Positions 11,733 to 63,040 of a DNA stretch of 64,000 nucleotides are shown in pieces. Every line of letters starts with the position of its first letter. The first letter of the stretch is position 1. The position numbers and the translations under genes are program-made. The notes under the pieces are model-generated. The model saw only the letters and a program-made list of their open reading frames with translations, had not been told where the DNA came from and did not search any database. Source of the stretch: Candidatus Falkowbacteria bacterium RIFCSPLOWO2_12_FULL_45_13 (lineage in GTDB: Bacteria; Patescibacteriota; Patescibacteriia; Patescibacteriales; GWC2-42-12); contig MFFY01000061.1 in assembly GCA_001778055.1 (NCBI GenBank), positions 515 through 64,514 of the forward strand. Direction: 5' to 3'.

Positions 11733-11925
11733 GACAGTCTTCCTGTCATTGCGAGCCCCGACGCTCTGGGTGGGGCGAAGCAATCTCACGTATGACTATA
11801 CCTCACTAAATCTCGTAATAATTTTATTATGATTATTCTTTACCGTTCGAGATTGCCCGCCCGACTGAACGTCGTTCGGGCGGGCTTCGTCGCTGGCGCT
11901 CCTCGCAATGACAGAAACTTTACAT
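11733..11925. repeat. MITE-like structured repeat, copy B (between eno and gpmI)
   Basis: Termini gtcattgcgag...ctcgcaatgac, internal gcaatctcacg...cg.gagattgc, and the perfect hairpin gcccgcccga...cgggcgggc. Confidence 0.7.
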
Positions 11926-11934
11926 TTTTAACTG

Positions 11935-15940: not shown

Positions 15941-17095
15941 CTACTTTATGGCCTCCAGCCGCAACCTGACTTCCCGCTCTAAGTCATTGCGTAAAACAAC
16001 CAAATCAATCACTTCTCCGGCCTCGCGATCCTGAATAACATCAGCCAAATCATTGTCTTTATTTAAGAAAACATCGTCAACGGAAATAATGACATCGCCT
16101 TCGCGCAAGCCCGCTTTATCGGCCGGACTATCCTTTCTGACCGCCGGCGCCTTGGAGCTTCTGTGAATAATCACGCCTTTCTGCCAACGGCTATTTTGGC
16201 CGTCAACTTCGGCCAGCTCGTCCAAAACGATATAGTTAATCCCCAAATAAATCCTAGCGCTGGTTTTATTTTTAAATAAACTTTTAACCGCGCCGCCAAA
16301 ATGATTGATCGGCTCAATTTCTCCCCGATCGTCAGCCAGTCCCAAGGCCTCGCCGGCCAAATTAAAGATAATTGAGCCTTGAAATTCCGGCGGCAGCTTG
16401 TCGTTTAATAAGAGCTTCTCCGAAAAACTGTCGCTCGATTTCACCAGGCCGCCGGTCCGGCTAAAACCGGCCACCGCGGAAACGAGGCTTGAGCCCAGCC
16501 AATTAACGGCCACGGCTAATTGTCCGCTTTTTACCCGTTGGTCTTCCGCGAATTTTCTGACCGGTAAATCCCGAGCCTGAACATGGATAAAATTAAACTT
16601 GGTCAGATTATCGACCACGGCTTTGTCAATCTGGTATATTTTTTTATCCTTGGTAATGACCGCGTAATCGTTATAGCTTTTATCCAGGGCTTGGCTCGTA
16701 ACAATCCAGCCATCCGAGGTTATAATAAATCCCTGACCGCTCGGTTCGTTAATTTTATAAAAATTATCTAAAATAAAAAGCTGGTTTGATTTAACGGGTT
16801 TCTGCTTTTTATAAATTCCCACTAAACTGCTCGAAACCGAATTAATGGTCTCGTCTACTTTAGCGTCCTGCTGCACAATCACGTTCTTGGGATTGCTTAT
16901 CACCAGGCCTTGGTCGCCGTATTGGCCGTTGGAAAAATCCAGATTGCCAAAAGACGAAAAACCGTACCAAGAATCAGCCAGATAAGCTTGGGCCGTTATT
17001 TCCCCGACCAAGCCGCCGCCCAGCCCAAAAATCAGAGATATTATAATCAAGACGATTAAATTGTGTTTTTTAAAAAAATCTTTGACTCTTCTCAT
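15941..17095 (-). CDS. PDZ-domain periplasmic protein (HtrA-like architecture, catalytic triad not evident)
   Basis: 384 aa. N-terminal TM, C-terminal PDZ-like GLREGDVIISVDDVFLNKDNDLADVIQDREAGEVIDLVVLRND. No clear GNSGG serine motif. Confidence 0.5.
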   Translation of the reverse strand: MRRVKDFFKKHNLIVLIIISLIFGLGGGLVGEITAQAYLADSWYGFSSFGNLDFSNGQYGDQGLVISNPKNVIVQQDAKVDETINSVSSSLVGIYKKQKPVKSNQLFILDNFYKINEPSGQGFIITSDGWIVTSQALDKSYNDYAVITKDKKIYQIDKAVVDNLTKFNFIHVQARDLPVRKFAEDQRVKSGQLAVAVNWLGSSLVSAVAGFSRTGGLVKSSDSFSEKLLLNDKLPPEFQGSIIFNLAGEALGLADDRGEIEPINHFGGAVKSLFKNKTSARIYLGINYIVLDELAEVDGQNSRWQKGVIIHRSSKAPAVRKDSPADKAGLREGDVIISVDDVFLNKDNDLADVIQDREAGEVIDLVVLRNDLEREVRLRLEAIK

Positions 17096-17281
17096 AAATT
17101 CCTTAATGCCGCCTTGGCTAAATATTTATTCGCGGCCTACGCGCATATAACGCATGGATTATGCTAGAGCCTGTCTCAAAAATAGCTTTTAGTCATTTTT
17201 GAGATAGACTCTAGTTAATGATTTTAATTTTGCATTTTATTGATTCGTAATATTTGCAGCTGATTCGTAGATTTGCGGGGC

Positions 17282-18043
17282 CTACATCCACTTCGCCGTG
17301 GACAAGACTAATAATAAGCTGATTGATCCCAAAATTAAATACATTTTTACCTTGGCCGCGTCCAATTTTAGAAGTAAATGATTTTTAACCAGGCCGATAA
17401 CCACATAATAGCAAATCGCCAAGCTCAAGCCGGAAATATTATAATTAAACGGCAAAAAGGAAATTGACCAAAATAATTCAACCAAAATCAGGCAACTGAT
17501 TAAAATATAAGGCAAACTGGGCATCAGTTCTATCTTGTTGGCCCAAATTATCTGATAAACCAGCAAACTTGTCAAGCTTATCATAATGAGCACCAGCCAA
17601 GAAATCGGCAAGTTCAAAAAGGACGCCAGGCCGTAAACCGTGGCCGCCAGCAAAAAAAAGGTCAGCCAGTTGATATATGAGGAGATATTTTCTATGCTAA
17701 AAACTTCATAGGCCAAAGGGTTAAGCAAATAATAATAAACATACCGTAAATATAAATATAAAAAAACCAAATTAAAAAAATACAGTAGTTGAATAATAAG
17801 CTTAAAACTTAAAAAAACCGAATAGCTCATCACCGCCACGGACATAACGGCCGGCAAGATTAAGTAATTCCACCAGCGCTTATCAATTTCGCTGGTTTGG
17901 CTAAATTGCCAAACCGTGAAAAAAATCAGTAAATTTACCAAAACTGCGGCTACGTAAATCAGTTTCGGAGACAAATAATACATTTCTTCAAGTAAAAAAA
18001 CCAACGCCGGAATTATTAAGGGCAATAAACGATTAAGCTTCAT
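17282..18043 (-). CDS. Hypothetical polytopic membrane protein
   Basis: 253 aa, highly hydrophobic with many predicted TM helices. No recognisable family. Confidence 0.5.
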   Translation of the reverse strand: MKLNRLLPLIIPALVFLLEEMYYLSPKLIYVAAVLVNLLIFFTVWQFSQTSEIDKRWWNYLILPAVMSVAVMSYSVFLSFKLIIQLLYFFNLVFLYLYLRYVYYYLLNPLAYEVFSIENISSYINWLTFFLLAATVYGLASFLNLPISWLVLIMISLTSLLVYQIIWANKIELMPSLPYILISCLILVELFWSISFLPFNYNISGLSLAICYYVVIGLVKNHLLLKLDAAKVKMYLILGSISLLLVLSTAKWM

Positions 18044-18463: not shown

Positions 18464-18629
18464 ATAGAATAATTTAATAGTACTTACGCGCTCTCCAATA
18501 TTATCTAAAGTTAATAAAAATTGTTAATTTATGCCAACCAACTGTAATTACCCGCAAATCTACAAATCAGCTACGAATACTACCAATGCTATTCGTGATA
18601 TTCGTAGCTGATTTGTAGATTTGCGGGAG

Positions 18630-18971
18630 CTATATACCAAATTTTTTAGCTTCCATTTCCAGCCAATCGTTTATCGCTTCGTCCCATTTATAGGCTTTTA
18701 ATTTGTGGCTTTTTTCCTTCGGGCTGTAAACATATTCCACCACGGTCTCGGCGCCAAGACGGTTGGAATATTTGGTTTTTTTATCAATGACCGCCGGCTT
18801 GGTGATAAATTCTAATTTCATCCTGCCCAACGGGCCTTTAAAAATAATATATTCAACCTCAACGCCGCCTTGTTCTTCAAGGTATCGTTTTTCGCACTCT
18901 TCCACCTCATAATTATCTTTTATATTGCCGACGATTTGTTGCCATTTTTCTGACGTCATAAAATAAAGCAT
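18630..18971 (-). CDS. Hypothetical protein
   Basis: 113 aa ORF, no recognisable motifs. Confidence 0.45.
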   Translation of the reverse strand: MLYFMTSEKWQQIVGNIKDNYEVEECEKRYLEEQGGVEVEYIIFKGPLGRMKLEFITKPAVIDKKTKYSNRLGAETVVEYVYSPKEKSHKLKAYKWDEAINDWLEMEAKKFGI

Positions 18972-20785: not shown

Positions 20786-21123
20786 TTTATTTTACTTTTA
20801 ATCATAATTAACAGCATTTTAAATCGTGCAATAGCTTTAAGCGAGTGCGGTTGATCGGCCGGCATGATAATCATGTCGCCGGACGCTAATTTTTTTGTCT
20901 GGCCAGAAATTCTGATATCCGCCCGGCCATCAAATAAATATACCAAAGCGTCATAGGGCGCGGTGTGTTCGCTTAAACCCTGGCCTTGGTCGAAGGCGAA
21001 CAAAGTCACCGTGCCTAAGGGCTGATTAATTATGGTCCGGCTGACGATCGTTCCCTTCTGATAATTAATTGATTCTAATAAATTTTCTTTCTTTGACATA
21101 TTACTTTTTATCAGCTTGACCAT
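20782..21123 (-). CDS. Cupin-domain protein
   Basis: 113 aa. G(X)5HXH-like segment GLSEHTAPYDALVYLFDGRA and PADQPHSL. It overlaps both neighbours by a few bp. Confidence 0.55.
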   Translation of the reverse strand: MVKLIKSNMSKKENLLESINYQKGTIVSRTIINQPLGTVTLFAFDQGQGLSEHTAPYDALVYLFDGRADIRISGQTKKLASGDMIIMPADQPHSLKAIARFKMLLIMIKSKIK

Positions 21124-22396
21124 GATTAACCTTAAAGTATTTTCTCCCCCTTAACTTCCCCGGCAGATAGTCCTGCTTTTCTTTATAATCATAATCCGGG
21201 CTGTATTTATAGTCTTGGCCGTAGCCCAGCTCCTTCATCAGCTTGGTGGGCGCGTTCCTGATAGACAAAGGTACCGGCAAATTGCCATATTCATGAACAT
21301 CAGCCGCGGCTTGTTTATAGGCTATGTATAAATCATTAGACTTTTCGCACTTGGCCATATAAACCACGGCCTGGGCTAAAATAACATTGCCTTCCGGCAG
21401 GCCGATAAAATGGCAGGCCTGATAGGCGGCCACGGCCTGCTCCAGGGCGCGCGAATTGGCCAAGCCGATATCCTCCGAGGCAAAGCGCACCAGCCGGCGG
21501 GCGATATAGAGCGGATCTTCGCCCGCCTCGGTCATGCGCGCCAGCCAATACAAGGCCGCGTCCGCGTCAGACCCGCGCATGGCCTTATGCAGAGCGGAAA
21601 TTATATTATAGTGCTCATCTCCGTCCTTATCGTATAACAAATGAGACTTTTGAAAAGCTTCTTTAATAATCTCGGCTGTTATTTCTTTACTCCCCTCTCC
21701 TTGAGTTACACCCTCTCCTTTAGAAGGAGAGGGTTGGGGTGAGGTGGCCGCGTACTCCAAAACATTCAGCGCCGCGCGCGCGTCGCCGTTGGACAGGCGC
21801 GCCAATAAATTTATGGCGGCCGCGTCTATTTTAATTTTAAATACGCCCAGTCCCCTGGCCTTGTCTGCCAACGCTCTTTTAATAATTTCTCCTATCTGCG
21901 TTTCGTCTAATTGCTTTAAAACAAACACGCGGCAGCGCGACAACAAAGCTCCGCGCACTTCAAAGCTGGGGTTTTCCGTGGTGGCGCCAATCAGAATAAT
22001 GACGCCGCGCTCCACCTGCGGCAACAGCGCGTCCTGCTGGGCTTTATTCCAACGGTGGATTTCATCAATGAATAAAATGGTTTTTTTGCCCTCAATGCTG
22101 TTTTCTTTGGCTTTTTTTATAATCAGCCTCAAATCCTTCAAACCGCTGGTAACGGCGCTAATGCGTAAAAATTCCGACTTGGTTTGCCTGGCGATGATAT
22201 GGGCCAAGGTGGTTTTGCCGCTACCCGGCGGGCCCCAAAAAATCATGGAGGGCAACTGGTCACCGGTTATGGCCTGCCTTAATAATTTTCCCGACCCGAC
22301 GATTTCATCCTGTCCTAAAAAATCTGCCAGCGTCTCTGGCCGCAGCCGATCGGCTAGGGGTGAAGTATTTAGTATATTTGGAGCCGTTGTTTCCAT
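21101..22396 (-). CDS. rarA: Replication-associated recombination protein A (RarA/MgsA AAA+ ATPase)
   Basis: 431 aa. Walker A FWGPPGSGKTTLA, Walker B ILFIDEIHRWNKAQQDALL, and the C-terminal RarA helical domain (ISALHKAMRGSDADAALYW). Confidence 0.9.
   Translation of the reverse strand: METTAPNILNTSPLADRLRPETLADFLGQDEIVGSGKLLRQAITGDQLPSMIFWGPPGSGKTTLAHIIARQTKSEFLRISAVTSGLKDLRLIIKKAKENSIEGKKTILFIDEIHRWNKAQQDALLPQVERGVIILIGATTENPSFEVRGALLSRCRVFVLKQLDETQIGEIIKRALADKARGLGVFKIKIDAAAINLLARLSNGDARAALNVLEYAATSPQPSPSKGEGVTQGEGSKEITAEIIKEAFQKSHLLYDKDGDEHYNIISALHKAMRGSDADAALYWLARMTEAGEDPLYIARRLVRFASEDIGLANSRALEQAVAAYQACHFIGLPEGNVILAQAVVYMAKCEKSNDLYIAYKQAAADVHEYGNLPVPLSIRNAPTKLMKELGYGQDYKYSPDYDYKEKQDYLPGKLRGRKYFKVNHGQADKK
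21690..21748. repeat. Palindromic element (C-rich / GGAGAGGG family) inside rarA
   Basis: ctcccctctccttgagttacaccctctcctttagaaggagagggttggggtgagg. It encodes SPQPSPSKGEGVTQGEGSK in the RarA linker. Confidence 0.6.
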
Positions 22397-25771: not shown

Positions 25772-27340
25772 TTATTTCACGTAAAATTCTTTTTTTATTT
25801 CTTCATCATCTTCCATTTTTTTCTCTTCAATTTTTTCTTTGGCTTTTTCCCGTAATTCTTTTAAATCCATTTTATTTAGCTCCAAGCTCCGCGTCTCCAA
25901 ATATTTTTGATCATTCAATTTTTGATCTTCAATCACTTCCGACAGCAAGACGTCCAAAATCGCCCCAATTTTCGGCCCAGGCGCTATACCCAACAGTTTC
26001 ATCAAATCATCGCCATTGATGGCGAGCATTTTTACCGACACCGCATCATGCCTGACCTTTTCCATCATATATTCCAGATGCCTTAACTTATACGGCTTGG
26101 CTTTGGGCACGCCCGAGCCCAGACGATCGGCGACGCGCAGGGCAATCAAATCGGCCAGATTCTCTTCGCCGACTTTTCTAACCAGGCGCCTGACCGAGCT
26201 CTCGGTCACTTCGCCCACATTATAATAAAACATATGGTTTCTGACCAAGCTGGTCACTTTTTCAATATCCTGGCCGGCAAACTTTAACCGGCGCATGATT
26301 TTTTCCGTCACCCTGGCGCCGATGATGTCATGGTTATAAAAAGTCGCCTCCTGCCCCGAACTGATCCGCTTGGTTTGCGGCTTGGCAATGTCATGCAAAA
26401 GCGAGGCCAGTTTAACCTGCCACTTTTTACTGGGAGTATGCTTCAGAGATAGCACACTATGGTTAAAAACCGTATAAATATGATGCCGATTCTGCGCCAC
26501 ACCCACGCCGCGCTCCAGTTCCGGCATCAGATATTGAAGCAATTTAAATTCATGAAGCATCATGATGCCTTCATAGGCTTTATCCGTTTCTAAAATTTTA
26601 ATAAGCTCGTCGCGCAAGCGTTCGCCGGAAATAAATTTAATACTACCGGCCATTTTAACTATGCCTCTCTCGGTTTTCGGCTCAAGCATAAATCCTAATT
26701 GGCAGGCCAGGCGCACCGCGCGCATCATGCGCAAAGCGTCCTCTTTAAACCGGTCTTCCGGCTCGCCCACGGCGCGGATTACTTTCTTTTTCAAATCCTT
26801 CGCGCCGCCAAACAAATCAATAAGCTCGTAACTCGCATCTCGTAACTCATAACTCTTTTTATCCCGCATTTGAGTTACGGGTTGTGAGTTGTGAGTTATG
26901 AGCCGCAACGCCATGGCATTAACCGTAAAATCCCTGCGGCTCAAATCTTTTTCCAGACTGTCCTCAAACCGTACCTGGTCCGGATGCCGGCGGTCGCTAT
27001 AACCTTGTTCAGAACGATAAGTTGTTACCTCGACAACGTCTTCCGCTTCTCCGTTAGCCGGCTTTACCGGCACTAAAACCGTACCAAAGTCATTTTTATA
27101 TTTGCCGTCAGGAAAAATTTCCAAAATTTTTTCCGGCCGCGCGTTGGTGGTTACGTCCCAATCTTTCGGCTGCCGTGCCATTAACAAATCACGCACGCAA
27201 CCGCCCACGATATAGGCTTCAAAACCGGCTTGCTCCAGTTTTTCCACGATATTTTTAATATAGTCGGGAGTTTGCATTATAGCAAAAACGGCACTATCAT
27301 TAGCGCCTAAAATTATTATGATTACAGCTAAAATATACAA
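25772..27340 (-). CDS. cca: CCA-adding tRNA nucleotidyltransferase / poly(A) polymerase family protein with C-terminal HD domain
   Basis: 522 aa. GGCVRDLLM and DWD (NTase motifs), RRDFTVNAMAL, and a C-terminal HD region. It carries an in-frame palindromic insertion. Confidence 0.85.
   Translation of the reverse strand: MYILAVIIIILGANDSAVFAIMQTPDYIKNIVEKLEQAGFEAYIVGGCVRDLLMARQPKDWDVTTNARPEKILEIFPDGKYKNDFGTVLVPVKPANGEAEDVVEVTTYRSEQGYSDRRHPDQVRFEDSLEKDLSRRDFTVNAMALRLITHNSQPVTQMRDKKSYELRDASYELIDLFGGAKDLKKKVIRAVGEPEDRFKEDALRMMRAVRLACQLGFMLEPKTERGIVKMAGSIKFISGERLRDELIKILETDKAYEGIMMLHEFKLLQYLMPELERGVGVAQNRHHIYTVFNHSVLSLKHTPSKKWQVKLASLLHDIAKPQTKRISSGQEATFYNHDIIGARVTEKIMRRLKFAGQDIEKVTSLVRNHMFYYNVGEVTESSVRRLVRKVGEENLADLIALRVADRLGSGVPKAKPYKLRHLEYMMEKVRHDAVSVKMLAINGDDLMKLLGIAPGPKIGAILDVLLSEVIEDQKLNDQKYLETRSLELNKMDLKELREKAKEKIEEKKMEDDEEIKKEFYVK
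26825..26902. repeat. In-frame palindromic element (GAGTTATGAG / CTCATAACTC family) inside cca
   Basis: ctcgtaactcgcatctcgtaactcataactc...gagttacgggttgtgagttgtgagttatgag. It encodes RLITHNSQPVTQMRDKKSYELRDASYEL between the conserved NAMAL and IDLFGG. An intergenic copy lies at 49264-49356. Confidence 0.7.
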
Positions 27341-27545: not shown

Positions 27546-29501
27546 CTAACTTCTCTTTTTGTAGGTGGTATATAAAACGGTTTTTTCCAATTTCCCCTGC
27601 TTTTTTAGCCAACTTAAAGCCCCGATTGCTTCGTCGTTCTCGTGCGCTCTTCTTATTTTGCTAGCGCCGTCAATTTTATACAAAGCGGCCAATCTTTTTT
27701 TTCTTATTTCGGCCGTGGTGGGAATCGGCTGGCCGCCACCGCCGATACAACCGTCCGGGCAGGCCATAACTTCAATATAATCAAAATCTTTTAATTTATC
27801 TAAGATCGGTTGAATACTGCCAATGCCGTTTACCACCGCCACTCTGACTTTTTTTCCGCCCATCTCCAAATTTGCCGTTTTTACTCCTTCCTGACCGCGG
27901 ACATCTTTAAATTCAACTCTCTGGATCTCGGAATCGCCAAACCTGATTTTAGCTTCTAGGCCCAAATCACGACATACCCGGTCTTGGGCCGTGGCCATCA
28001 AATAAGCGGCGGTCCTCAGGGCTGATTCCATTACGCCTCCCGTGGCGCCGTAGATCGCGCCGGCTCCGCTCGCCGTCCCAAGTGGATTATCCGCCCGTTC
28101 CGCTTTCAAACTTTTAAAATCTATCTTATTTTTCTTGATCAACCAGGCTAATTCGCGGGTAGTTAGGCAATAATCAATCGGCCAATCGCCTCTGATCTTA
28201 AGTTCTTTGCGGCTAGACTCAAACTTCTTGGCCGTACAAGGCATGATTGACACGACCACGATGTTCTTTGGCTTGATTTTTCGGCCCGAGGCCGATCCGC
28301 CTTGGGCGGACATTTTCTCGGCCCAATAAGTTTTAATAATGCCGGCGCTATGCATCTGCGGACTGCGCGCCGTGGTCATGTTAGGAATTAAGTCGGGACG
28401 GAAAAATTCCACATATTTTATCCAGGCCGGGCAACAGGAGGTAAACATGGGCAAATTAGAAATTGGCGTGACCTTACCAAATTTCAAATTTCTAATTTCT
28501 AGTTTCTTGTCTTCATGGTTTAATAACCTCTCTCTTATTTTTAATCTCTCAATTAACTCTTCCGCCTCAACAATGGTGGTAACGTCGGCGCCGAAATTAA
28601 CGTCGAAAACGTAGGCGAAACCCAATTTTTTCAAAGCCGCCACCACCTGGCCGGTCATGACCCTTCCGGTTTCAACGCCAAATTCTTCGCCAATGCTGAC
28701 CCTAATAGAAGGGGCTATCTGAGCGACCAATACCTCGGACTTGTTTTTAAGCGCTTTCTCCACGAGGTGCCAATCGGCCTGCTCCTGCGCCGCCCCGACC
28801 GGACAATGCAAGGCGCACTGGCCGCAATAGATGCAATCGACCTTTCTCCTGTCCGCTTTGGCGAAAGCGAAAACGCCCTTTTCCGTTACCGGTACAATTT
28901 CCTGAGCCACGCCCTTACCCCTTAGTTCCAGATAATTTATTTTCTGCAAATCATTGCAGGCCTCCAGGCAATTCCGGCAATCAATGCATTGGCTAGAGTC
29001 AATTTCCACGGCATTGGCGAATTTATATGTTTGCCTCTTGCCTTTACGATCTTTAAATCTGCAAATTTCAATTTTATACCTTTCGGCCAATTCCAGCAGC
29101 TTGCAGTTAACCCGCCAAATGCAAGTCGGGCATTTTTCAATATGCTCGGCGAATATCAATTCAATATTTAAATTGCGCGAACGTTTGACTCTGGTCGTAT
29201 CGGTTTTTATTTCCATGCCGGCTTTGACTTTTGTATCGCATGCCGTCACCAGCCTGGCCTGCGCCGACTTCGGCGCCTTCATCCCGAAGTCAGGCCGAAG
29301 AGAGCTCGGTTGAACCGAGTCCGCCGAATACGCCACCTCTACCACGCAAATCCGGCAATTGGCTTTAACCGAAAAATCAGGATGATAACAGAGATTAGGC
29401 AACATCATGCCGTTATCTTGAGCCACCCGCATGATAGTCGCGCCTTCATCGCAGATGATTTCTTTGCCGTCTAAATATATTTTAACTTTTTTATCAGTCA
29501 T
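27546..29501 (-). CDS. hydA: [FeFe]-hydrogenase catalytic subunit (HydA/HndD-like) with N-terminal 2Fe-2S and multiple 4Fe-4S domains
   Basis: 651 aa. H-cluster motifs L1 TSCCPAW, L2 MPCTAKKFE, L3 EVMACPDGCIGGGGQP. N-terminal NuoG-like 2Fe-2S domain (CRICVVEV) and ferredoxin-type CxxCxxCxxxCP motifs. Confidence 0.9.
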   Translation of the reverse strand: MTDKKVKIYLDGKEIICDEGATIMRVAQDNGMMLPNLCYHPDFSVKANCRICVVEVAYSADSVQPSSLRPDFGMKAPKSAQARLVTACDTKVKAGMEIKTDTTRVKRSRNLNIELIFAEHIEKCPTCIWRVNCKLLELAERYKIEICRFKDRKGKRQTYKFANAVEIDSSQCIDCRNCLEACNDLQKINYLELRGKGVAQEIVPVTEKGVFAFAKADRRKVDCIYCGQCALHCPVGAAQEQADWHLVEKALKNKSEVLVAQIAPSIRVSIGEEFGVETGRVMTGQVVAALKKLGFAYVFDVNFGADVTTIVEAEELIERLKIRERLLNHEDKKLEIRNLKFGKVTPISNLPMFTSCCPAWIKYVEFFRPDLIPNMTTARSPQMHSAGIIKTYWAEKMSAQGGSASGRKIKPKNIVVVSIMPCTAKKFESSRKELKIRGDWPIDYCLTTRELAWLIKKNKIDFKSLKAERADNPLGTASGAGAIYGATGGVMESALRTAAYLMATAQDRVCRDLGLEAKIRFGDSEIQRVEFKDVRGQEGVKTANLEMGGKKVRVAVVNGIGSIQPILDKLKDFDYIEVMACPDGCIGGGGQPIPTTAEIRKKRLAALYKIDGASKIRRAHENDEAIGALSWLKKQGKLEKTVLYTTYKKRS

Positions 29502-29588
29502 AATCAGTCATGTTTTTGCAAATTCATAATTGCCTAACAAATCAACGAATTAACTACGAATATCACGAATAATATAATTGAAAAATAA

Positions 29589-30668
29589 TTATTTTAGTAT
29601 TTGTATATTCGTTGTAAAATTCGTTGATTCGTTAGCCTGGTTGATTTGTGGGTAGACATTCTTTAAAAAGCTTCTGATCGGCACAGGCACCGAGCAGCCC
29701 AGGGCGCAAACCGAAGTATCGGCCAGATTGTCCAATAAATTATTAAACAAGACCCAGTCGGTTTTTCCCGCCAGAAAAACCTCGCCCAATCTAAAAGTTC
29801 CTTCGCGGCAGGGCGCGCATTGCCCGCAAGATTCGCTCATAAAAAAATTAAGCCAAGACTTAATGATTTTTTTATAATTATTCTTTGTGATGCTGTAAAT
29901 AGTGATGGAACCCGCGCCCTGAACCGATCTTTTTAACTGTCGGCTATTTAAAACTTCGCCGGCCGCGCCGCCGCCACATTGGACAAAAAAAGGAAATTTA
30001 GGATAATTTTTTGTCGCTTTTAATATTTTCTCAATGCTAAAACTTTCCGGCAAATCATAAACTCCCTCCCGCGGGCAATCGCCGGTCAGGCTGTAAAATC
30101 TTTTATTTTCATATCGATTGGCTTCAACCAGGCTGACATTATAAAAAGTTTCAACGTTATTCACTAAGGTGGGGCAGCCCCACAGGCCGGCGGTGGTGGG
30201 AAACGGCGGTTTTAACCTAGGCTCGACCCTTCGACCTTCAATGGCGTTTAAAATCGCGCTTTCCTCGCCGCCGATATAACCGGCGTTCGGCGGCTTAACG
30301 AAGATTTCAATAACAGAAGATTTCAACAGAACGGTTAATTTTTTTTTCAATTTTTTATTATAACCGTAGTTTAAAAATAAATAACCTTTTACAACTCCCT
30401 TGTCCGCCGAGGCTTTAGCGTAGGCGGATAAAAAATCAACGGCGATTTTCATGCCGTTAATCACCTGATCCGCGTGATGCTCTAAAATATAATCATCTTT
30501 GATCACGCCCGGTTCGCCTTCAGCCGCGTTACAGACCACATAGCATTTTTTTTCGCCTGCTTTATCCGCCAGAGCCTGAGCGACGGCAGACCACTTTTTC
30601 GCCACCGGAAAGCAGGCGCCACCGCGCCCGACCAGACCGGCTAGTTTTATTTTTTCCAGGATATCCAT
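29589..30668 (-). CDS. NuoF-like NADH-binding FMN flavoprotein subunit (hydrogenase HydB/HndC-like, short form)
   Basis: 359 aa. GLVGRGGACFPVAKKW, YVVCNAAEGEPG, GYIGGEESAILNAIEGRRVEPRLKPPFP, PTLVNNVETF, ESCGQCAPCREG. It lacks the N-terminal NuoE-like and C-terminal ferredoxin extensions of full HydB. Confidence 0.8.
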   Translation of the reverse strand: MDILEKIKLAGLVGRGGACFPVAKKWSAVAQALADKAGEKKCYVVCNAAEGEPGVIKDDYILEHHADQVINGMKIAVDFLSAYAKASADKGVVKGYLFLNYGYNKKLKKKLTVLLKSSVIEIFVKPPNAGYIGGEESAILNAIEGRRVEPRLKPPFPTTAGLWGCPTLVNNVETFYNVSLVEANRYENKRFYSLTGDCPREGVYDLPESFSIEKILKATKNYPKFPFFVQCGGGAAGEVLNSRQLKRSVQGAGSITIYSITKNNYKKIIKSWLNFFMSESCGQCAPCREGTFRLGEVFLAGKTDWVLFNNLLDNLADTSVCALGCSVPVPIRSFLKNVYPQINQANESTNFTTNIQILK

Positions 30669-30906
30669 GACAAAAAATTTAAAGTTGAAAAATCAAAATG
30701 AAAAATGACCATGTAAAATTTAAAATTATTAATTCAGACATTTTTCATTTTAAATTGTCATTTTACAATTTGCCTGCCTCGCTCGCCGTTTTATTGTTTA
30801 TTAATCATAAATGTTCGTTAGATATTATCAGCGATTATTAACAGACAAATTAACGCGAGGCGGGCCGGGGAGATTTACATTTTGCATTTCTAAACAAAAA
30901 GATAAT

Positions 30907-32034
30907 TTACAACAACTTCTTTTTTCCAATATACTCGCATAAATCCGCCAATCGGCAGGAATAGCCCCACTCGTTATCATACCAAGCGATTATTTTCAAA
31001 AGATCGCCGTCAATAACCTTGGTTAAAGGCAAATCAACGATGGCGCTGTTTGCGTTGCCGATAAAATCGGAAGAAACCAGCGGTTCTTCCGTTACCGCCA
31101 CGTAACCTTTATAATCGCCGGCCGCGGCTTTTTTTATCGCTTGATTAACCGCCTCGGCGGTAACCGATTTTTCCGTAAGATACACGATATCGCACAAGGA
31201 CACCACCGGCGTGGGCAGGCGCAAGGCCAGGCCATCAAATTTTCCGGCCAGCTCCGGAATAGTTTTAGCCGTGGCTTTGGCCGCGCCGGTCGTGGTCGGC
31301 ACGATATTTAGGCCGGCCGCGCGAGCTCGGCGCAAATCCTTATGCGGCCCGTCCACTAAATTTTGACCAGCCGTATAAGAATGCGCGGTAGACATAATGG
31401 CCTTTTTAACGCCGAAATTGTCTCTAACTATTTTCGTTACCGGAGCCAAACAATTGGTGGTGCAGGAAGCCATGGAAATAATTTTGTCATCTTTAGTTAA
31501 ATCTTTTTCATTAACCGACAAAACAATAGTTTTAATAGCCTCTCCCCCTGACAAGAGGGAGCTGGAGGGGGTTTTTTCTTTAGCGGGCTTGCCCGCCGTA
31601 GCTTTTTTATCCGCCAAAGCCTTGGCGTCGGCGGAAGCGGAGGCGGGCGCCGACAAAATCACTTTTGTAGCACCGGCTTCAAGATGCTGTCCGGCGCCAA
31701 GCGCGTCCAGAAATCTGCCGGTGCATTCCAAAACAATATCCACCTTCAGTTTACCCCAGGGCAATCTGGCCGGCTCTTTTTCCTTGAGCACCCGATATTT
31801 TTTACCGCCAACCATCAAATTATCGGCTTCTGCCGCAACTTTTTTTTCATAAGTTCCATAACAGCTATCGTGCTGTAAGAGATGCGCCAGCGTCTTGGTG
31901 TCCGTCAAATCATTTATTGCCGCCACATTTATCCCCTTTTTATTTAACAAGGCTTTAAAAGCGGCCCGGCCGATCCGGCCGAAGCCATTGATGGCGATGT
32001 TCACCCCGTTAGATATTGGCATATATTTTTTCAT
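30907..32034 (-). CDS. gap: Glyceraldehyde-3-phosphate dehydrogenase (type I) with an internal insertion of about 30 aa
   Basis: 375 aa. INGFGRIGR, active site ASCTTNCLAPV, WYDNEWGYS. The Ala/Lys-rich insertion ...ASADAKALADKKATAGKPAKEKTPSSSLLSGGEAI is encoded partly by the palindrome at 31541-31572. Confidence 0.95.
   Translation of the reverse strand: MKKYMPISNGVNIAINGFGRIGRAAFKALLNKKGINVAAINDLTDTKTLAHLLQHDSCYGTYEKKVAAEADNLMVGGKKYRVLKEKEPARLPWGKLKVDIVLECTGRFLDALGAGQHLEAGATKVILSAPASASADAKALADKKATAGKPAKEKTPSSSLLSGGEAIKTIVLSVNEKDLTKDDKIISMASCTTNCLAPVTKIVRDNFGVKKAIMSTAHSYTAGQNLVDGPHKDLRRARAAGLNIVPTTTGAAKATAKTIPELAGKFDGLALRLPTPVVSLCDIVYLTEKSVTAEAVNQAIKKAAAGDYKGYVAVTEEPLVSSDFIGNANSAIVDLPLTKVIDGDLLKIIAWYDNEWGYSCRLADLCEYIGKKKLL
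31541..31572. repeat. In-frame palindromic element (C5-TGACAAG-AGGG family) inside gap
   Basis: tctccccctgacaagagggagctggagggggt. Nearly identical core to the eno copy. Confidence 0.7.
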
Positions 32035-32243: not shown

Positions 32244-33152
32244 CTATCTTATCGGCTTTACTTTCCCCGCCTCCACCTCAACCACACCGCCCGTCTCGCC
32301 GTTGCCAGCTTCAAAGAAAACGCTGACAGTCTGCTTTAAGATATGCTGGGCCACTACCCGGCCCTGCCGGCCTTCAAATTTTACTTCGCTGTCCAGGGGC
32401 GGTAATTTCTCGGCCAGCTTTTTATAGCCCGCCTCTTCAAAAGACAAACAGCACATCAGCCGGCCGCAAACGCCGGAGATTCTTTCCGAGCCGCGGTGCG
32501 CGCATTGCTGCAACTCGGCCATTTCCGAAGTTATGGAATTAAGCTCGCCCAAAAATCGCCCGCAGCATAGCGGCCGACCGCAATGGCCGAAATCGCCGCA
32601 GTGCCTGGCTTCATCGCGAATGCCGATTTGCTGCAATCTTATATTGCGGCCGAAATACTTAGTCAGTTCTTTAACCAGCTCCCTAAAATCTATCCTGGAA
32701 TCGGCAATGAAAGGGAAGGTGATCCTTGAATCGTCAAACGAATAATGCACATCCACCAATTTCATGGGCAATTGATGTTTGGCGATAACCATTTTACAAT
32801 AATCAAAATCTTCTTTTGACTGCTGGGCGCTTGGCAATTTCTCCAAATCGGCCGTGGCCGCTTTACTTATAATTTTTTTTATTTCACCCGGCGCCGGGCT
32901 GGCTGAAGGAGTTCGCTCCGCCTTTGTCCCGATCCCTGGAAAAAGAGCGTCTGCCGTGCCGGCCGGCATTTTGGCCGGCTTCAGCGAATCGGCACCCGCA
33001 ACCGGCCAATCAGTAAAGCCCGTCACCTTGCCCAATTCCAAGCCCAGTTCAGTTTCAACGATCACCTGGTCGCCAACTTCCAAAATTAAATCAGCCGGAT
33101 CAAAATTATACTTCTTGTCCCAAGGGGCGAATTGTACCTGGGCTACCTTCAT
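32244..33152 (-). CDS. PSP1 C-terminal domain protein (RicT/YaaT-like); the ORF is open up to 33230 but the likely start is MKVAQVQF at 33152
   Basis: VVETELGLELGKV N-terminal region and Cys clusters CGDFGHCGRPLCCGRFL and GVCGRLMCCLSFE match PSP1/RicT. The extended N-terminus overlaps MITE-like copy C. Confidence 0.65.
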   Translation of the reverse strand: MKVAQVQFAPWDKKYNFDPADLILEVGDQVIVETELGLELGKVTGFTDWPVAGADSLKPAKMPAGTADALFPGIGTKAERTPSASPAPGEIKKIISKAATADLEKLPSAQQSKEDFDYCKMVIAKHQLPMKLVDVHYSFDDSRITFPFIADSRIDFRELVKELTKYFGRNIRLQQIGIRDEARHCGDFGHCGRPLCCGRFLGELNSITSEMAELQQCAHRGSERISGVCGRLMCCLSFEEAGYKKLAEKLPPLDSEVKFEGRQGRVVAQHILKQTVSVFFEAGNGETGGVVEVEAGKVKPIR

Positions 33153-33162
33153 AGAATAGCAA

Positions 33163-33326
33163 TTGTCATTGCGATGATGCAGCTCCAGTTTCTTAAACTG
33201 GGGCTGGAGACGAAGCAATCTCACGAACATCTAAGCACAAAGTACTAGGCAAAAGGAATTTTTAGTACAAGCAAGATATGCGTGAGATTGCTTCCCCCGG
33301 CTTAAGGCCGGGGTCGCAATGACAAT
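33163..33326. repeat. MITE-like structured repeat, copy C (between tsf and the PSP1-domain gene)
   Basis: Termini gtcattgcga...tcgcaatgaca and internal gaagcaatctcacg...cgtgagattgcttc. The central segment differs from copies A and B. Confidence 0.65.
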
Positions 33327-33341
33327 CAAAAATTTAAAAAT

Positions 33342-34193
33342 TTACAAACTGTACCTAACAAACTTTTCTGCTTTCACCCCGCCCAAAATATCTTCAACGC
33401 TCTTCTTGTCGTCCTTAATATACTCCTGTTTAACCAAGCAAACTTCTTCGTAAAATTTATTCAACTTACCGGCGATAATTTTATCGATCATATTTTCCGG
33501 CTTGCCTTCTTTCAGGAGTTGCGCCCGATAAATTTCTTTTTCTTTGGCGATTTCCCCCGGGCTGACATCTTCGGGTTTGATATATTTTGGATTGGCGGCC
33601 GCGATTTGCATGGCCACATTATAGGCTAAACTGCTTTGTCCGGCTTTATCCAGGGCGGCTAAAACGCCGATTCTTCCGCCGGCATGCGTATAACAGGCCA
33701 CCGTTCCGGCGGACGACAGAATGTCGTACTTTTTAATCTCAAGTTTTTCACCGATGGTCCCGCTTAAAGCAGCCAACCTCTCTCCAACAGTTTCTTCTCT
33801 ATTTAACGGAGTGTTACCAGACAAGCTAACCATATAATCACTTAACTTTATCCGGAGCAATTCTTTTTGGCTTTTTGGCTTTTTTGTTTCTATAATTTTC
33901 AAGACTAAATCAGCGAACCCTTTAAATTGTTCGTTCCGCGCCACAAAATCAGTTTCCGAATTCATCTCTAAAATGTAGCCTTCATTCCCCGCTTTATTTG
34001 TATCAACCAGAATCACGCCTTCGCCGGCCTCGCGATCGCTTCTTTTGGCCGCTTTGGCAATGCCCTTTTTTCTTAAAATTTCAATGGCTTTTTCAATTTC
34101 GCCGCCGGCTTCGTCCAGGGCAATTTTACAATCAGCCATGCCTGCCCCGCTCTTTTCTCTCAGCAATTTTAATAATCGAGATTTATTTTCCAT
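33342..34193 (-). CDS. tsf: Translation elongation factor Ts
   Basis: 283 aa. N-terminal UBA-like LLKLLREKSGAGMADCKIALDEAGGEIEKAIEILRKKG and dimerisation domains. Conserved rpsB-tsf gene order. Confidence 0.95.
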   Translation of the reverse strand: MENKSRLLKLLREKSGAGMADCKIALDEAGGEIEKAIEILRKKGIAKAAKRSDREAGEGVILVDTNKAGNEGYILEMNSETDFVARNEQFKGFADLVLKIIETKKPKSQKELLRIKLSDYMVSLSGNTPLNREETVGERLAALSGTIGEKLEIKKYDILSSAGTVACYTHAGGRIGVLAALDKAGQSSLAYNVAMQIAAANPKYIKPEDVSPGEIAKEKEIYRAQLLKEGKPENMIDKIIAGKLNKFYEEVCLVKQEYIKDDKKSVEDILGGVKAEKFVRYSL

Positions 34194-38195: not shown

Positions 38196-39248
38196 ATGAC
38201 CATCAGCCAGACTCTTAAATTTGCCACGGACAAATTAAGCGCCAAGAAAATAAAACTTCCGCTCCTTGAGGCGGAAATCTTATTATCCAGCATTTTAAAA
38301 AAACCGCGCGAGTTCCTTTTGACGCACCCCGAATATAATCTGACAGCCGAGCAAGTTTCCCGGTCTAAGTTTCAAATTTCCTGCCGTCTTAAAGGCGCGC
38401 CCATAGCCTATCTGACCGGCCATAAGGAATTCTACGGGCTGAATTTTAAGGTCAATAAAAACGTCTTAATCCCCCGCCCGGAAACGGAATTAATGGTTAA
38501 TGAAGCGCTCAAACTAATAATGCGCGACCCGCTACCCATGACACTCCTTGACATAGGCACTGGCTCGGGGTGCATTATTATTAGTTTAGTTAAAAATATA
38601 ATTTCCAAATTTCCTTCGCCAGCCGACGTATCAAATTTTGAATTTTTAGCCACAGACATCTCAAAATCAACTTTATCCATCGCCAAACAAAATGCCAAAC
38701 TACATGGTCTCAACAAAATAAAATTCATCCACGCTGATCTATTAAGTCCGTCGGTTAAATCGAAAATCGAAAATCTTCGCCAGAGGCGCCCTGCCCGCCG
38801 GCAGGCAGGGATCTCCGCCCAAGGCGGACCAGCCTCTGGCTGGCGCGACAAACTCTGGCGGAGAAAATCGAAAATCTTTTTGGCTAATCTGCCCTACGGC
38901 TGGAAAGCCTGGAAAAATAATTGCTCCCTGGACACGATTGGCCTGAAATTTGAGCCCGAGCAGGCGCTTTTTACCGGCGAAAACGGCTTGGAGCTCTATA
39001 AAAAATTGTTTAGACAAATAAAAAATTTAGCCATCCAACCTGCCGCCTGTCATATATTATGCGAATTTGACCCGCGGCAAACCGCGAAGATCAAACAGCT
39101 CATCAAACAAGAACTGCCTTGGGCCGAATGCCAAATAAAAAAAGACCTGGCCGGCCTTAATCGCTTGGCAATTGTAAGATACTGCCGCCGAATGCCGCAT
39201 TCGGCGGCAGTCCCATCACCACTTCCGCTTAACAATCACAACCAATAA
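38196..39248 (+). CDS. prmC: Release factor glutamine N5-methyltransferase PrmC (HemK) with an in-frame insertion of about 45 aa
   Basis: 350 aa. SAM-binding LLDIGTGSGCI and catalytic NLPY (NPPY variant). Conserved prfA-prmC order. The extra segment SVKSKIENLRQRRPARRQAGISAQGGPASGWRDKLWRRKSKIF is encoded by a palindromic element. Confidence 0.85.
   Translation: MTISQTLKFATDKLSAKKIKLPLLEAEILLSSILKKPREFLLTHPEYNLTAEQVSRSKFQISCRLKGAPIAYLTGHKEFYGLNFKVNKNVLIPRPETELMVNEALKLIMRDPLPMTLLDIGTGSGCIIISLVKNIISKFPSPADVSNFEFLATDISKSTLSIAKQNAKLHGLNKIKFIHADLLSPSVKSKIENLRQRRPARRQAGISAQGGPASGWRDKLWRRKSKIFLANLPYGWKAWKNNCSLDTIGLKFEPEQALFTGENGLELYKKLFRQIKNLAIQPAACHILCEFDPRQTAKIKQLIKQELPWAECQIKKDLAGLNRLAIVRYCRRMPHSAAVPSPLPLNNHNQ
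38757..38876. repeat. In-frame palindromic insertion element inside prmC (AT-rich arms aaatcgaaaatc..., GC-rich palindromic core)
   Basis: Arms cgaaaatcttcgccagag / ctctggcggagaaaatcg flank the core ccctgcccgccggcaggcaggg. The arm motif resembles the tRNA-Ala flanks at 24262-24395. Confidence 0.65.
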
Positions 39249-41311: not shown

Positions 41312-41390
41312 AACGCAAATCTCAAATCTATAATTTAAAACTCAAAACTATTATCAAATTTAATGATTTGAACTACAGTTTTGAGTTTTT

Positions 41391-41418
41391 CCGCCGGAGG
41401 CGGATCCGCCTCCGGCGG
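41391..41418. repeat. Perfect 28-bp palindrome (ccgccggaggcggatccgcctccggcgg) nested in a longer AT-rich inverted repeat (aaaactcaaaact / agttttgagtttt)
   Basis: Intercistronic, between a hypothetical gene and the ftsW/rodA-family gene. Contains a BamHI-like ggatcc core. Confidence 0.8.
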
Positions 41419-41479
41419 AGACATTTGAGTTTTGAGATACTAAAACGAGATATTGAAATAGCTTTTCTATAACACTATA

Positions 41480-42445: not shown

Positions 42446-42737
42446 GCTATTATTTTAACATAATTTGCCCCCTTGATAAAGGGGGCCGGGGGCAAAAATA
42501 CGAGCGCCCAGGCAACCCCTTGAATAACTGTTGAGATTTAACCTCCACATGTAGGTTAAATCTCTTATTTTTTTCACCCATCTCCCTTGCCGTTTCCGCT
42601 TTTTTTTGCTAAAATTTAAGTATAAAAATGAGCTAATTTAGATGTTTTTATTTTAAAATATTTAGGCTAAAATTAAATAAAAAAATACACAAATTATACA
42701 CGCCAATCAATTCGTCGTATTCGCACATAATTTGTAG

Positions 42738-44804
<2,067 letters not shown>

Positions 44805-49263: not shown

Positions 49264-49356
49264 CTCATAACTCGTAGCTCGCAACTCTTTTACCTAATAT
49301 TTTGAGTTATGAGCTATGGGTTATGGGTTATGAGTTACGAGTTGTGAGTTATGAGA
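49264..49356. repeat. Intergenic copy of the GAGTTATGAG / CTCATAACTC palindromic element (same family as the cca insert)
   Basis: ctcataactcgtagctcgcaactc...gagttatgagctatgggttatgggttatgagttacgagttgtgagttatgag, between the hypothetical gene and the dnaE stop. Confidence 0.75.
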
Positions 49357-49390
49357 TTAATATTATTTTACCAGCTTTCAGCCATTCTGT

Positions 49391-53005: not shown

Positions 53006-53278
53006 ACCTGCTGACTTATTATGCGCGTTGTTCTTAATTCATTGGCCCTACAAATCTACGAATCCACTAAAAATATACAAATATTTGTAAATTCGTTATT
53101 TTATTCGTTGATTCGTTAGGGTTTTGATTATTATAATATAACATTTTTTCCGGTAATGGCAAACTTTTAATTTAAACGGTCTTTTTTTATTTTAAAAATT
53201 TCGTCGCCAAGCAAAAAACAGGCTTTAAAATTTTAAACCTGTCTTTTACTTCTTACTTCCTACTTCTTACTTCTAACT

Positions 53279-62944: not shown

Positions 62945-63040
62945 ATGTTTTTATTTTACCATATTTTACCCCCTTGATAAAGGGGCAAACCCTGGCCTTA
63001 ATCAAGCGCCAGGGCTAGAGCCGTCAGAGCCAACCAATCA

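Follow-up and report, generated by a model that had tools for sequence, protein, structure and literature searches.

The 64,000-nt window analysed here, from contig MFFY01000061.1 of Candidatus Falkowbacteria bacterium RIFCSPLOWO2_12_FULL_45_13, carries a gene for glyceraldehyde-3-phosphate dehydrogenase (GAPDH) with an additional in-frame coding segment, and it is the nature of this segment that is considered (Table 1). The enzyme is a type I GAPDH, being full length with both Pfam domains (Gp_dh_N at residues 11-110, E 1.8e-36; Gp_dh_C at 196-352, E 3.1e-56) and the catalytic Cys motif SCTTNC. The surrounding ASCTTNCLAP is invariant across the homologue alignment, and the catalytic and NAD-binding motifs are intact. 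An NCBI entry under the name Candidatus Falkowbacteria matches the protein at 100% identity. A phmmer search of the PDB matched the GAPDH of B. stearothermophilus (1gd1, E 1.3e-104), with residues 11-132 and 169-373 aligned to its residues 2-123 and 128-333. Thus 36 residues stand where 1gd1 has a 4-residue turn, a net gain of about 32 placed between SAPA and IKTIVLSVNE, while the remaining 9 or so extra residues of the 375-aa open reading frame (ORF) form an N-terminal extension that depends on the start codon chosen. The first-pass annotation had described an insertion of about 30 aa after SAPA, encoded partly by a palindromic element at 31541-31572. Both the insertion and the motif are there as described, the plus strand of the motif being the antisense of the TPSSSLLSGGE codons, and the rest of the insert was found to consist of two further palindromic units. 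The insert is very probably made up of three miniature palindromic repeats, here called H2, H1 and H3, of which H1 is nested in H2 and H3 lies nine bases further on, and which entered a permissive turn at two points.

The insert peptide, ASASADAKALADKKATAGKPAKEKTPSSSLLSGGEA, is encoded by 31540-31644, and examples of peptides bridging the insert or its junctions are TPSSSLLSGGEAIK, EKTPSSSLLSGGEAIK and ALADKK. An assembly artefact as the source of the insert was ruled out, since 10 contigs of independent origin (ENA, JGI and Logan samples) encode the identical GAPDH protein. In an AlphaFold2 model based on 38 homologues, pLDDT was below 50 at residues 134-142 and 146-164 and the flanking strands were confident; the sole helix in the insert was short and covered ADAKALADKKA. 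Superposed on solved GAPDHs with Foldseek, the model gave target-normalised TM scores of 0.90-0.92. The model thus suggests that a turn of the Rossmann (NAD-binding) domain is extended into a floppy excursion, and the insert is probably neutral or nearly neutral for the enzyme.

DNA comparison of eight syntenic genomes at the GAPDH site indicates that the insert, instead of being one loop, comprises three palindromic units, each 30-36 nt long. The empty allele is represented by L212, which encodes 334 aa and reads CCG GCT AAA GAT GAA ATT ATC AAA. Against this allele two adjacent insertion points are seen, one directly after the Pro codon of SAP and the other nine bases further. H2 is uninterrupted in L088, L089 and L215, where it has 30 nt, GCC TCC GCY AAR GCT ACG GCG GGC AAG CCG, encoding ASAKATAGKP. 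Alignment of the window with L088 shows that the window, like L214, has exactly 30 nt extra within H2, and these constitute H1, TCC GCC GAC GCC AAG GCT TTG GCG GAT AAA in the window and identical at 26 of 30 nt in L214. H1 and H2 have CGCCAAGGCT in common. The second point, between GAW and the codon that follows, is filled by H3-type units of 33-36 nt in the window, L088, L090, L213 and L215. H3 has a C-run leader followed by the hairpin CUCCCUC-UUGUCA-GGGGGAG, and three subfamilies occupy this one site: the window and L090 have the loop TTGTCA, L215 has the loop TTTATCAA, and L088 and L213 have CCCTCTCC-TTGGTAA-GGAGAGGG. The junctions vary between lineages (KDE|PHPN, KET|PHPN and KTE|PHPN). 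No target duplication was found around H3 or H1 when filled and empty alleles were compared, and at H2 there was only a CCG/CCGGC microhomology. H3 belongs, and H1 less firmly so, to dispersed families of 30-36-nt hairpins, with at least two of the units present in frame in other housekeeping genes of the genome.

Table 1. Palindromic units, host genes and transposase gene in the 64-kb window
Feature	Position	Strand	Description
GAPDH, type I	30907-32034	minus	375 aa as ORF, 371 aa in NCBI call; complete
H2, left part	31636-31644	minus	9 nt GCC TCC GCT, encodes ASA; from alignment to L088, L089, L215
H1	31606-31635	minus	30 nt, SADAKALADK; hairpin TCCGCC-N14-GGCGGA; nested inside H2
H2, right part	31585-31605	minus	21 of 30 nt, KATAGKP; palindrome GCGGGC-AA-GCCCGC
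Host codons GCT AAA GAA (AKE)	31576-31584	minus	Equivalent to GCT AAA GAT (AKD) of the empty L212 allele
H3	31540-31575	minus	36 nt, encodes KTPSSSLLSGGE; the motif first noted
H3, GAPDH	31537-31576 (R1 match)	minus	44.9 bits, E ~8e-10 (rough); best in window
H3, enolase (11935-13251)	12684-12722	minus	Encodes LTPPALLVRGGR; R1 23.8 bits, E ~3e-4
H3, iPGM paralogue (10077-11714)	10479-10524	minus	Nested palindrome TTAACCCCCCC..GGGGGGTTA, encodes LTPPHPLLKGEQGG; 21.7 bits
H3, intergenic	42467-42492	minus	GCCCCCTTGATAAAGGGGGCCGGGGG on plus strand; 20.3 bits
H3b subfamily, RarA/MgsA gene (21104-22396)	21707-21747	minus	Read as TSPQPSPSKGEG; 16.1 bits
Partial H3 hairpin, intergenic	62970-62985	minus	CCCCTTGATAAAGGGG; 13.4 bits, E 0.14, weak
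H1 copy, NuoF-like gene (29589-30668)	30405-30434	minus	SAYAKASADK; 10-bp stem TTTATCCGCC/GGCGGATAAA
H1-like segment, NuoF-like gene	30561-30590	minus	SAVAQALADK; 25/30 nt identical to GAPDH H1, same frame
IS200/IS605-family Y1 (HUH) transposase	1904-2299	minus	Pfam Y1_Tnp E 1.8e-32; HVH motif

The DNA core of the GAPDH motif had been called near-identical to a copy in the enolase gene and taken as a sign of a shared mobile origin. Their likeness held and their near-identity did not, since local alignment gave 26 of 31 identical columns with one mismatch and four gap columns. Their reading frames also differ, being CTC TTG TCA GGG GGA (LLSGG) in GAPDH and CTT GTC AGG GGG GGG (LVRGG) in enolase, which argues for relatedness at the level of DNA and not of protein. 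The 11-mer common to both has 2 matches in the window against 0.43 expected, a number reached in 7 of 100 shuffles, and a blastn-short search of the insert against the window gave marginal matches (E 0.024-0.38, the enolase pair having E 0.38), so similarity within the window could not carry the argument. Decisive and independent evidence came from a covariance model, R1, built from 30 metagenome partner hairpins and containing neither window sequence nor any halves selected by the search pattern. That pattern was based on two copies, one in the window's enolase gene and one in the GAPDH gene of L090, and the GAPDH copy of the window falls outside it. R1 scored both the GAPDH and the enolase copies and found six copies of H3 in the window, four genic and two intergenic (Table 1). 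Its best match, to the GAPDH unit, spans the full 40 positions of the model and takes in both the unpaired loop TGACAA and the 3′ G-run-TT tail.

The enolase copy is closer to the GAPDH H3 of L090, which it matches in 33 of 41 columns and in the same frame (LTPP..LVRG), than to the GAPDH H3 of the window. The RarA copy matches the GAPDH unit of L088 in 33 of 44 columns, including all 22 positions of the stem-loop arms, and is read in another frame (TSPQPSPSKGEG against TPHPNPLLGKERE). It sits in a variable linker whose length exceeds that in E. coli RarA (3pvs) by 8 residues, and DNA similarity alone suggests an insertion there. R1 gave five matches in 133 kb of syntenic relatives and two weak ones in 855 kb of control genomes, a density about 20 times lower. 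The controls were 80 loci around distant GAPDHs (at most 57% identity), found by a scan saturated by the conserved WYDNEWGY pattern. Both control matches were in one Nitrospirota metagenome-assembled genome, L081, which contains REPIN-like doublets at 100-200 and 1440-1540 with an H3-like architecture and a different sequence, situated within a larger inverted repeat and ordered as C-run leader, hairpin, spacer, hairpin and G-run tail. That the loops of GAPDH and enolase came to resemble each other independently, by chance, Pro/Gly codon composition or slippage, would agree with the weak statistics of the pair within the window. It is nevertheless a very improbable explanation given that a model made from unrelated sequences detects the GAPDH unit at the score shown in Table 1, that the controls are so poor in matches and that the enolase copy has its closer counterpart in the GAPDH of L090. 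The shared mobile origin is further supported by the dispersal of the family, its frames and orientations, the covariation of its stem and the polymorphism of its sites, as described below, and by the make-up of the rest of the insert as two more palindromic units, of which H1 has other copies in the neighbouring NuoF-like gene.

A pattern search located the H3 unit of about 32 nt on at least 120 metagenome contigs, with the consensus AACCCCCC(T)CAATCCCCCCTTGTCAGGGGGGA. In 34 of 88 metagenome copies an inverted partner hairpin (CCTCCCCTGAYAAGGGGAGGYTGGGAGGGGTT) follows 9-52 nt downstream and completes a REPIN-like doublet. By sequence, the H3 of GAPDH would be a single half of such an inverted doublet, and its family occurs in this genome and its relatives as well as in groundwater bacteria unrelated to them. 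The GC content of the host contigs lies between 35 and 67%. H3 lies in frame within the Pfam domains of MetRS (two contigs, same site), AhcY, MnmA, PheRS-alpha, PFOR and an AddA-like nuclease, and also within GlmS, CysRS and LeuRS. It is read in both orientations, as NPPxxPLVRGE or PLSGG in the sense direction and as SPPDKGGxxGG or SPLTRGxGG in the antisense direction. The frames in use are LLSGG, LVRGG, PSKGEG and the antisense PPDKGG and PLTRG, and the frame with TGA in the loop was never seen. The contig with H3 in CysRS (L126) belongs to a betaproteobacterium of the Gallionellaceae, a family in which the same inter-domain site is occupied by an insert of doublet type in nearly all listed CysRS homologues. 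Five of eight matches on predicted viral contigs from IMG/VR were true members of the family (L216, L217, L219, L220 and L221); the viral or proviral contigs bearing H3 have 44-64% GC, and one is from an isolate genome (IMG taxon 637000166). No Rfam 15 family matched at the gathering score in the window or in 14 element-bearing loci apart from tRNAs and one riboswitch, and full-text literature searches for the element sequences and for such inserts in the candidate phyla radiation (CPR) gave nothing specific.

H3 has a 7-bp stem and a 6-nt loop, and compensatory C-G/T-A changes keep the stem. Among its copies 95.7% of cells pair, compared with 89.9 ± 0.9 in shuffles (0/500 reach the observed value), and two-sided changes number 19 cells against 6.2 ± 2.3; slid controls pair at no more than 75%. 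The RNA of the GAPDH insert region folds better than shuffled sequence (-53.1 kcal/mol, z -2.4). G-T and C-A mismatches in the stems of a curated set were equally frequent (5 vs 5) and uninformative on strand or RNA role, and a regular-expression census of C-arm/G-arm hairpins for such a bias was confounded by register. A scan of the region for terminators and promoters gave 5 terminator-like sites against 2.5 ± 1.8 in shuffles, not above background.

The presence of the insert varies among 120 listed GAPDH homologues with 61-82% identity. Approximately 93 have the canonical turn of 4-5 residues and no insert, and approximately 27 are filled with H2, H1+H2, H3a, H3b or combinations of these; the insert is clearly not conserved in length and sequence across distant relatives lacking the DNA motif, the result that the first-pass annotation had named as one that would refute its reading. 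When the 65 closest sequences were placed in a neighbour-joining tree, to be taken as a rough guide, filled and empty ones were interleaved and sisters could differ in subfamily. Variants such as ETIPPTPFIKGE are unchanged in several homologues at 76-80% identity. Every one of the 120 is full length, with no split at the insert site. The same variability is found in other genes. The enolase site of LTPPALLVRGGR is empty, with a 4-residue turn, in about 80 of 120 homologues and contains varied hairpin-type peptides in about 40, and a second enolase site has 9-residue H3-type inserts in about 25 of 120. Of the two tandem paralogues of cofactor-independent phosphoglycerate mutase (iPGM; 8457-10049 and 10077-11714), only the second has an H3 insert. 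Alignments of syntenic orthologues (two sets, of 12 and 18 gene sets) revealed lineage-specific in-frame inserts, many of them GC-rich hairpins, in PrmC, RF1, the CCA-adding enzyme, EF-Ts, PSP1, a NuoF-like protein, an Fe-hydrogenase-like protein and a PPIase.

These patterns bear on the proposal that the insert is a selected feature for which the units were co-opted, either as a surface loop with a role in protein contacts, moonlighting or adhesion, or as an mRNA hairpin tuning translation or stability. The compensatory changes in the stem, the folding of the region, the recurrence of an unchanged ETIPPTPFIKGE and the short predicted helix would all fit. Stem covariation is, however, equally expected if the hairpin serves propagation of the element only, the equal mismatch counts give no strand bias for an RNA role, and confidence in the modelled loop is low. 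Moreover, most homologues, even very close ones, lack the insert, the filled ones differ in content and length, and the units decorate many unrelated enzymes in either orientation. Selection for the insert is consequently considered improbable.

Survival of a repeat in an essential gene would require a length that is a multiple of three, a stop-free frame and a site tolerant of a floppy excursion rich in Ala, Lys, Pro and Gly. Copies within these limits of length, frame and site would be the only ones to persist, the units being simply translated, and such limits would lead to recurrent use of a few sites and imply that the units are translated. The converse possibility is that the segment never reaches the protein because it is cut out of the mRNA or skipped by the ribosome. 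The GC-rich byp inserts of some yeast mitochondria are bypassed in this way, and the GAPDH insert is superficially like them in being a short GC-rich hairpin within an essential gene, in a genome that is otherwise fairly AT-rich (44% GC). Yet the units in verified genes all have multiple-of-three lengths and stop-free frames only, which is a signature of selection on translation, and neither an Rfam or ribozyme-like match nor a split GAPDH among the 120 listed homologues was found. Excision or bypass is hence hardly credible.

H1 is counted 2-3 times at loci of the window. The copy at 30405-30434 in the NuoF-like gene is identical to the H1 of GAPDH at 25 of 30 nt and in the same frame; its region is an insertion relative to the orthologues of L089 and L090 and was also flagged as repeat I12. 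The second H1-like segment of that gene (Table 1) has ungapped counterparts in the orthologues, which makes it doubtful as an insert and possibly native. A pairing of 31594-31635 with 30403-30444 as inverted copies was rejected, direct comparison favouring same-orientation, same-frame copies of a palindromic unit.

By its behaviour the insert is an instance of the phenomenon known from Rickettsia palindromic elements (RPEs) and from intragenic repetitive extragenic palindromic (REP) sequences, and it extends a known kind without a new principle: one unit occurs at several unrelated loci, and copies are in frame, stop-free and absent from close orthologues. RPEs are palindromic repeats of about 100-150 bp found in frame in many housekeeping genes of Rickettsia (Ogata et al. 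2000, via PMC10969869). As far as they are described in that secondary source, they resemble the present units in being dispersed, in-frame and translated, with several families per genome and intergenic copies, in a small-genome, host-dependent bacterium. They differ, according to the same summary, in length and in being confined to Rickettsia, the units here having 30-36 nt and H3 being found in both Patescibacteria and Gallionellaceae; this distinction is one of length and host and not of sequence comparison, to which the stacking and nesting of three units in one loop may be added. Closer in size are the GTAG/CGTC palindromes of 20-40 bp, which occur singly or as dimers in genes including those for tRNA synthetases and repair proteins; intragenic REPs add 10-30 residues, and only tolerated insertions survive (Di Nocera et al. 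2013, PMC3733652). H3 shares with them the 20-40-nt imperfect palindrome, the occurrence as singletons and inverted dimers and the coding location. REPs are mostly extragenic, whereas four of six H3 copies in the window are genic and H3 crosses phyla.

In the REPIN-RAYT system two inverted hairpin units with a short spacer can fold into one long hairpin, and REPIN families are described as vertically inherited and lineage-specific (Bertels & Rainey 2011, PMC3116915). A RAYT gene in single copy, bordered by the very REPs that it mobilises, completes the system. Inverted doublets are found here too (34/88 metagenome copies), and a Y1/HUH gene is present on the contig, but the GAPDH and enolase copies of the window are singletons, the Y1 gene is of the IS200 type and its flanks carry other repeats within the 64-kb window. 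A REPIN-RAYT relationship of H3 is thus not established. Palindrome-associated elements derived from IS200/IS605 likewise consist of hairpins, fit with clean loss, show no target duplication and are co-oriented with respect to replication. They insert 3′ of a fixed tetra- or pentanucleotide and have hairpins that match the IS ends; no conserved target of this kind was seen here, and the IS-end hairpins are unlike H1, H2 and H3. A classical miniature inverted-repeat transposable element has terminal inverted repeats and a target-site duplication, and the latter was not found. The mobile GC clusters of yeast mitochondria and the small dispersed repeats of cyanobacteria are very short GC-rich palindromes that spread in the genome and can lie within coding sequence or nest in one another; their hosts and sequences differ from those of the present units. 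Unusual here are the 32-nt unit that crosses phyla, the nested units and the three glycolytic enzymes hit in one small genome (GAPDH, enolase and iPGM).

Distribution and presence/absence suggest that the units are mobile. Mobilisation as single-stranded hairpins by a HUH/Y1 transposase of the IS200/RAYT kind is a possible route that is proposed tentatively, and the Y1 transposase of Table 1 is a candidate for the trans-acting enzyme. Speaking for it are the Y1 gene on the contig, the absence of target duplications, the inverted doublets and the co-orientation of the copies: all six H3 copies of the window have the same orientation, while the GC skew of the contig is uniformly negative and one strand bears 44 of its 52 genes. 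Insertion as a single-stranded hairpin would be expected to give no target duplication and could permit clean excision.

Several results weigh against the reading of the insert as three mobile repeats, or against the HUH route as its mechanism. The Y1 gene was typed by NCBIfam as transpos_IS200 (122.8 bits, cut-off 55) and reached only 21.6 bits on the RAYT model (cut-off 80), which makes it IS200 and not RAYT. It forms part of an IS200/IS605-type element at 1830-2490, with the hairpin CCCCGAGGCTTGCCTCGAGGGG (2313-2344) upstream of the gene, and the hairpins at the left and right ends of the IS200 copy (1830-2340) are unlike H1, H2 or H3. The element is flanked instead by a different, GTAG-containing repeat family (ATTCGTAGCTGATTTGTAGATTTGCGGG at 2362-2398 and 2442-2486), of which further copies are found at 17243-17287, 18551-18635 (37-nt arms, 3-nt spacer), 29533-29572 and 53082-53120. 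A tblastn search with the Y1 transposase in 1.8 Mb of other loci gave no homologue. No conserved target tetra- or pentanucleotide was evident for H3, the 5′ flanks being TTAAC, AAAAC, CAAC and AAAC, and the co-orientation of six copies has p ~0.03, to which selection against stop codons may contribute. REP superfamilies have a GTAG or CGTC tag at one end, and both are missing from the H3 consensus AACCCCCCTCAATCCCCCCTTGTCAGGGGGGA; in H1 copies one or the other is found next to the 3′ arm on the plus strand, inside the loop and not at the end, and inconsistently. Outside the GAPDH site H2 has one possible copy, which is intergenic, lies in L214 and differs by 5 mismatches. The host SAPA codons pair with part of the H2 stem, and H2 is the least secure of the three units as a dispersed element. 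The GAPDH insert is presumably translated, and neither a transposition intermediate, a recent duplicate nor a within-species empty/filled polymorphism was found, the contigs of this genome being identical at the GAPDH site. Finally, the H3 subfamilies at an identical site could represent one old insertion overwritten by gene conversion.

The last point leads to the alternative that the units have a shared repeat origin and were spread and homogenised by recombination-type processes and not by a transposase, with one ancient GAPDH insertion repeatedly overwritten or deleted. Candidate processes are conversion between dispersed copies, template switching at replication hairpins, and uptake and recombination of foreign gene segments. 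Three H3 subfamilies in exactly the same codon interval of close relatives would be expected from it, as would sister sequences that differ in subfamily, such as P0002 and P0004. H1 could derive from H2 by inverted duplication in view of the CGCCAAGGCT that they share, and the pairing of H2 with SAPA codons, the missing target duplication and the missing link to a transposase point in the same direction. Against it, the occurrence of the unit at many unrelated sites, genes and phyla calls for an initial insertion step that conversion alone cannot give, the differing junctions suggest more than one event, and inverted doublets and co-orientation are typical of HUH-mobilised elements. As an account of the whole, recombination is regarded as unlikely; for the dynamics at the GAPDH site, gene conversion or other recombination is a serious alternative.

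If the insert consists of mobile palindromic repeats, as is here preferred, a streamlined CPR genome tolerates repeat DNA in essential genes of central metabolism (GAPDH, enolase and iPGM) and in other housekeeping genes on the contig. Odd lengths and low-complexity loops in proteins of CPR and environmental bacteria can then be repeat insertions and not lineage-specific functional domains, a point of importance for annotation, alignment trimming, phylogenomics and structure prediction, and the short units offer sharp presence/absence markers for tracking strains and lineages. The presence of a 32-nt unit in both Patescibacteria and Gallionellaceae raises the question of how so small an element moves between phyla. 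It is conceivable, if somewhat doubtful, that H3 is an undescribed, untagged family of ~33-nt hairpins, REPIN-like as doublets, that crosses phyla among groundwater bacteria occurring together (Patescibacteria and Gallionellaceae, with copies also on viral contigs), colonises the coding sequence of core enzymes at recurrent permissive sites (three glycolytic enzymes in the window, many aminoacyl-tRNA synthetases in other genomes) and nests. Should H3 spread horizontally, its shared subfamilies could mark where CPR episymbionts have exchanged DNA with their hosts or phages, and reuse of the same codon interval would imply a target preference and not mere tolerance.

Other repeats and elements were noted in the window and its relatives. 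A contig variant of the same genome, L006, has a DDE_Tnp_1 transposase (11-1186) adjoining the rpsB-tsf-GAPDH cluster. The enolase gene contains a tandem heptamer, GGAAATT, in about 4-5 copies at 12806-12845, in frame and encoding NFQFPISNFQ; in most CPR enolases the peptide found here is internally repeated too (for example SYELRVASYEL and NYKLQITNYKL), which suggests another repeat family embedded in the gene. An additional palindromic family encoding SAQGGSASGR (TCCGCCCAAGGCGGATCGGCCTCGGGCCGA) occurs at 28281-28310 in the Fe-hydrogenase-like gene, at 38814-38843 in PrmC and between genes at 41390-41419, as well as in L090 (three sites), L130 and L214, and its PrmC copy lies within an 81-nt GC-rich insert at 38773-38850 (mfe -40.7 kcal/mol). 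In the CCA-adding enzyme an 18-residue insert at 26821-26853, QMRDKKSYELRDASYELI, is a copy of the intergenic family GTTATGAGTTACGAGTTGTGAG... (26871-26902, 49310-49359), and in L212 a bAvd and reverse-transcriptase pair resembling a diversity-generating retroelement (16586-18026) adjoins the gene of this enzyme. GyrB has a GC-rich segment at 44461-44535 with the direct repeat AATCGCCCGCCGACG in two copies, encoding 19 residues and possibly an in-frame repeat insert. Further lineage-specific in-frame inserts are found in the genes for the Fe-hydrogenase-like protein (27549-29501), EF-Ts (33345-34193) and PSP1 (32244-33230), examples being the AT-rich RLLNHEDKKLEIRNLKFGKVTPIS, DYMVSLSGNTPLNR and KMPAGTADALFPGIGT. 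The AT-rich repeat TTTTCATTTTTAACTGTCATTTTACATTTTGA (families D1 and D4) is intergenic and near gene ends, at 43-97, 11916-11970, 30739-30793 and other positions, and could be a promoter or operator-like motif.

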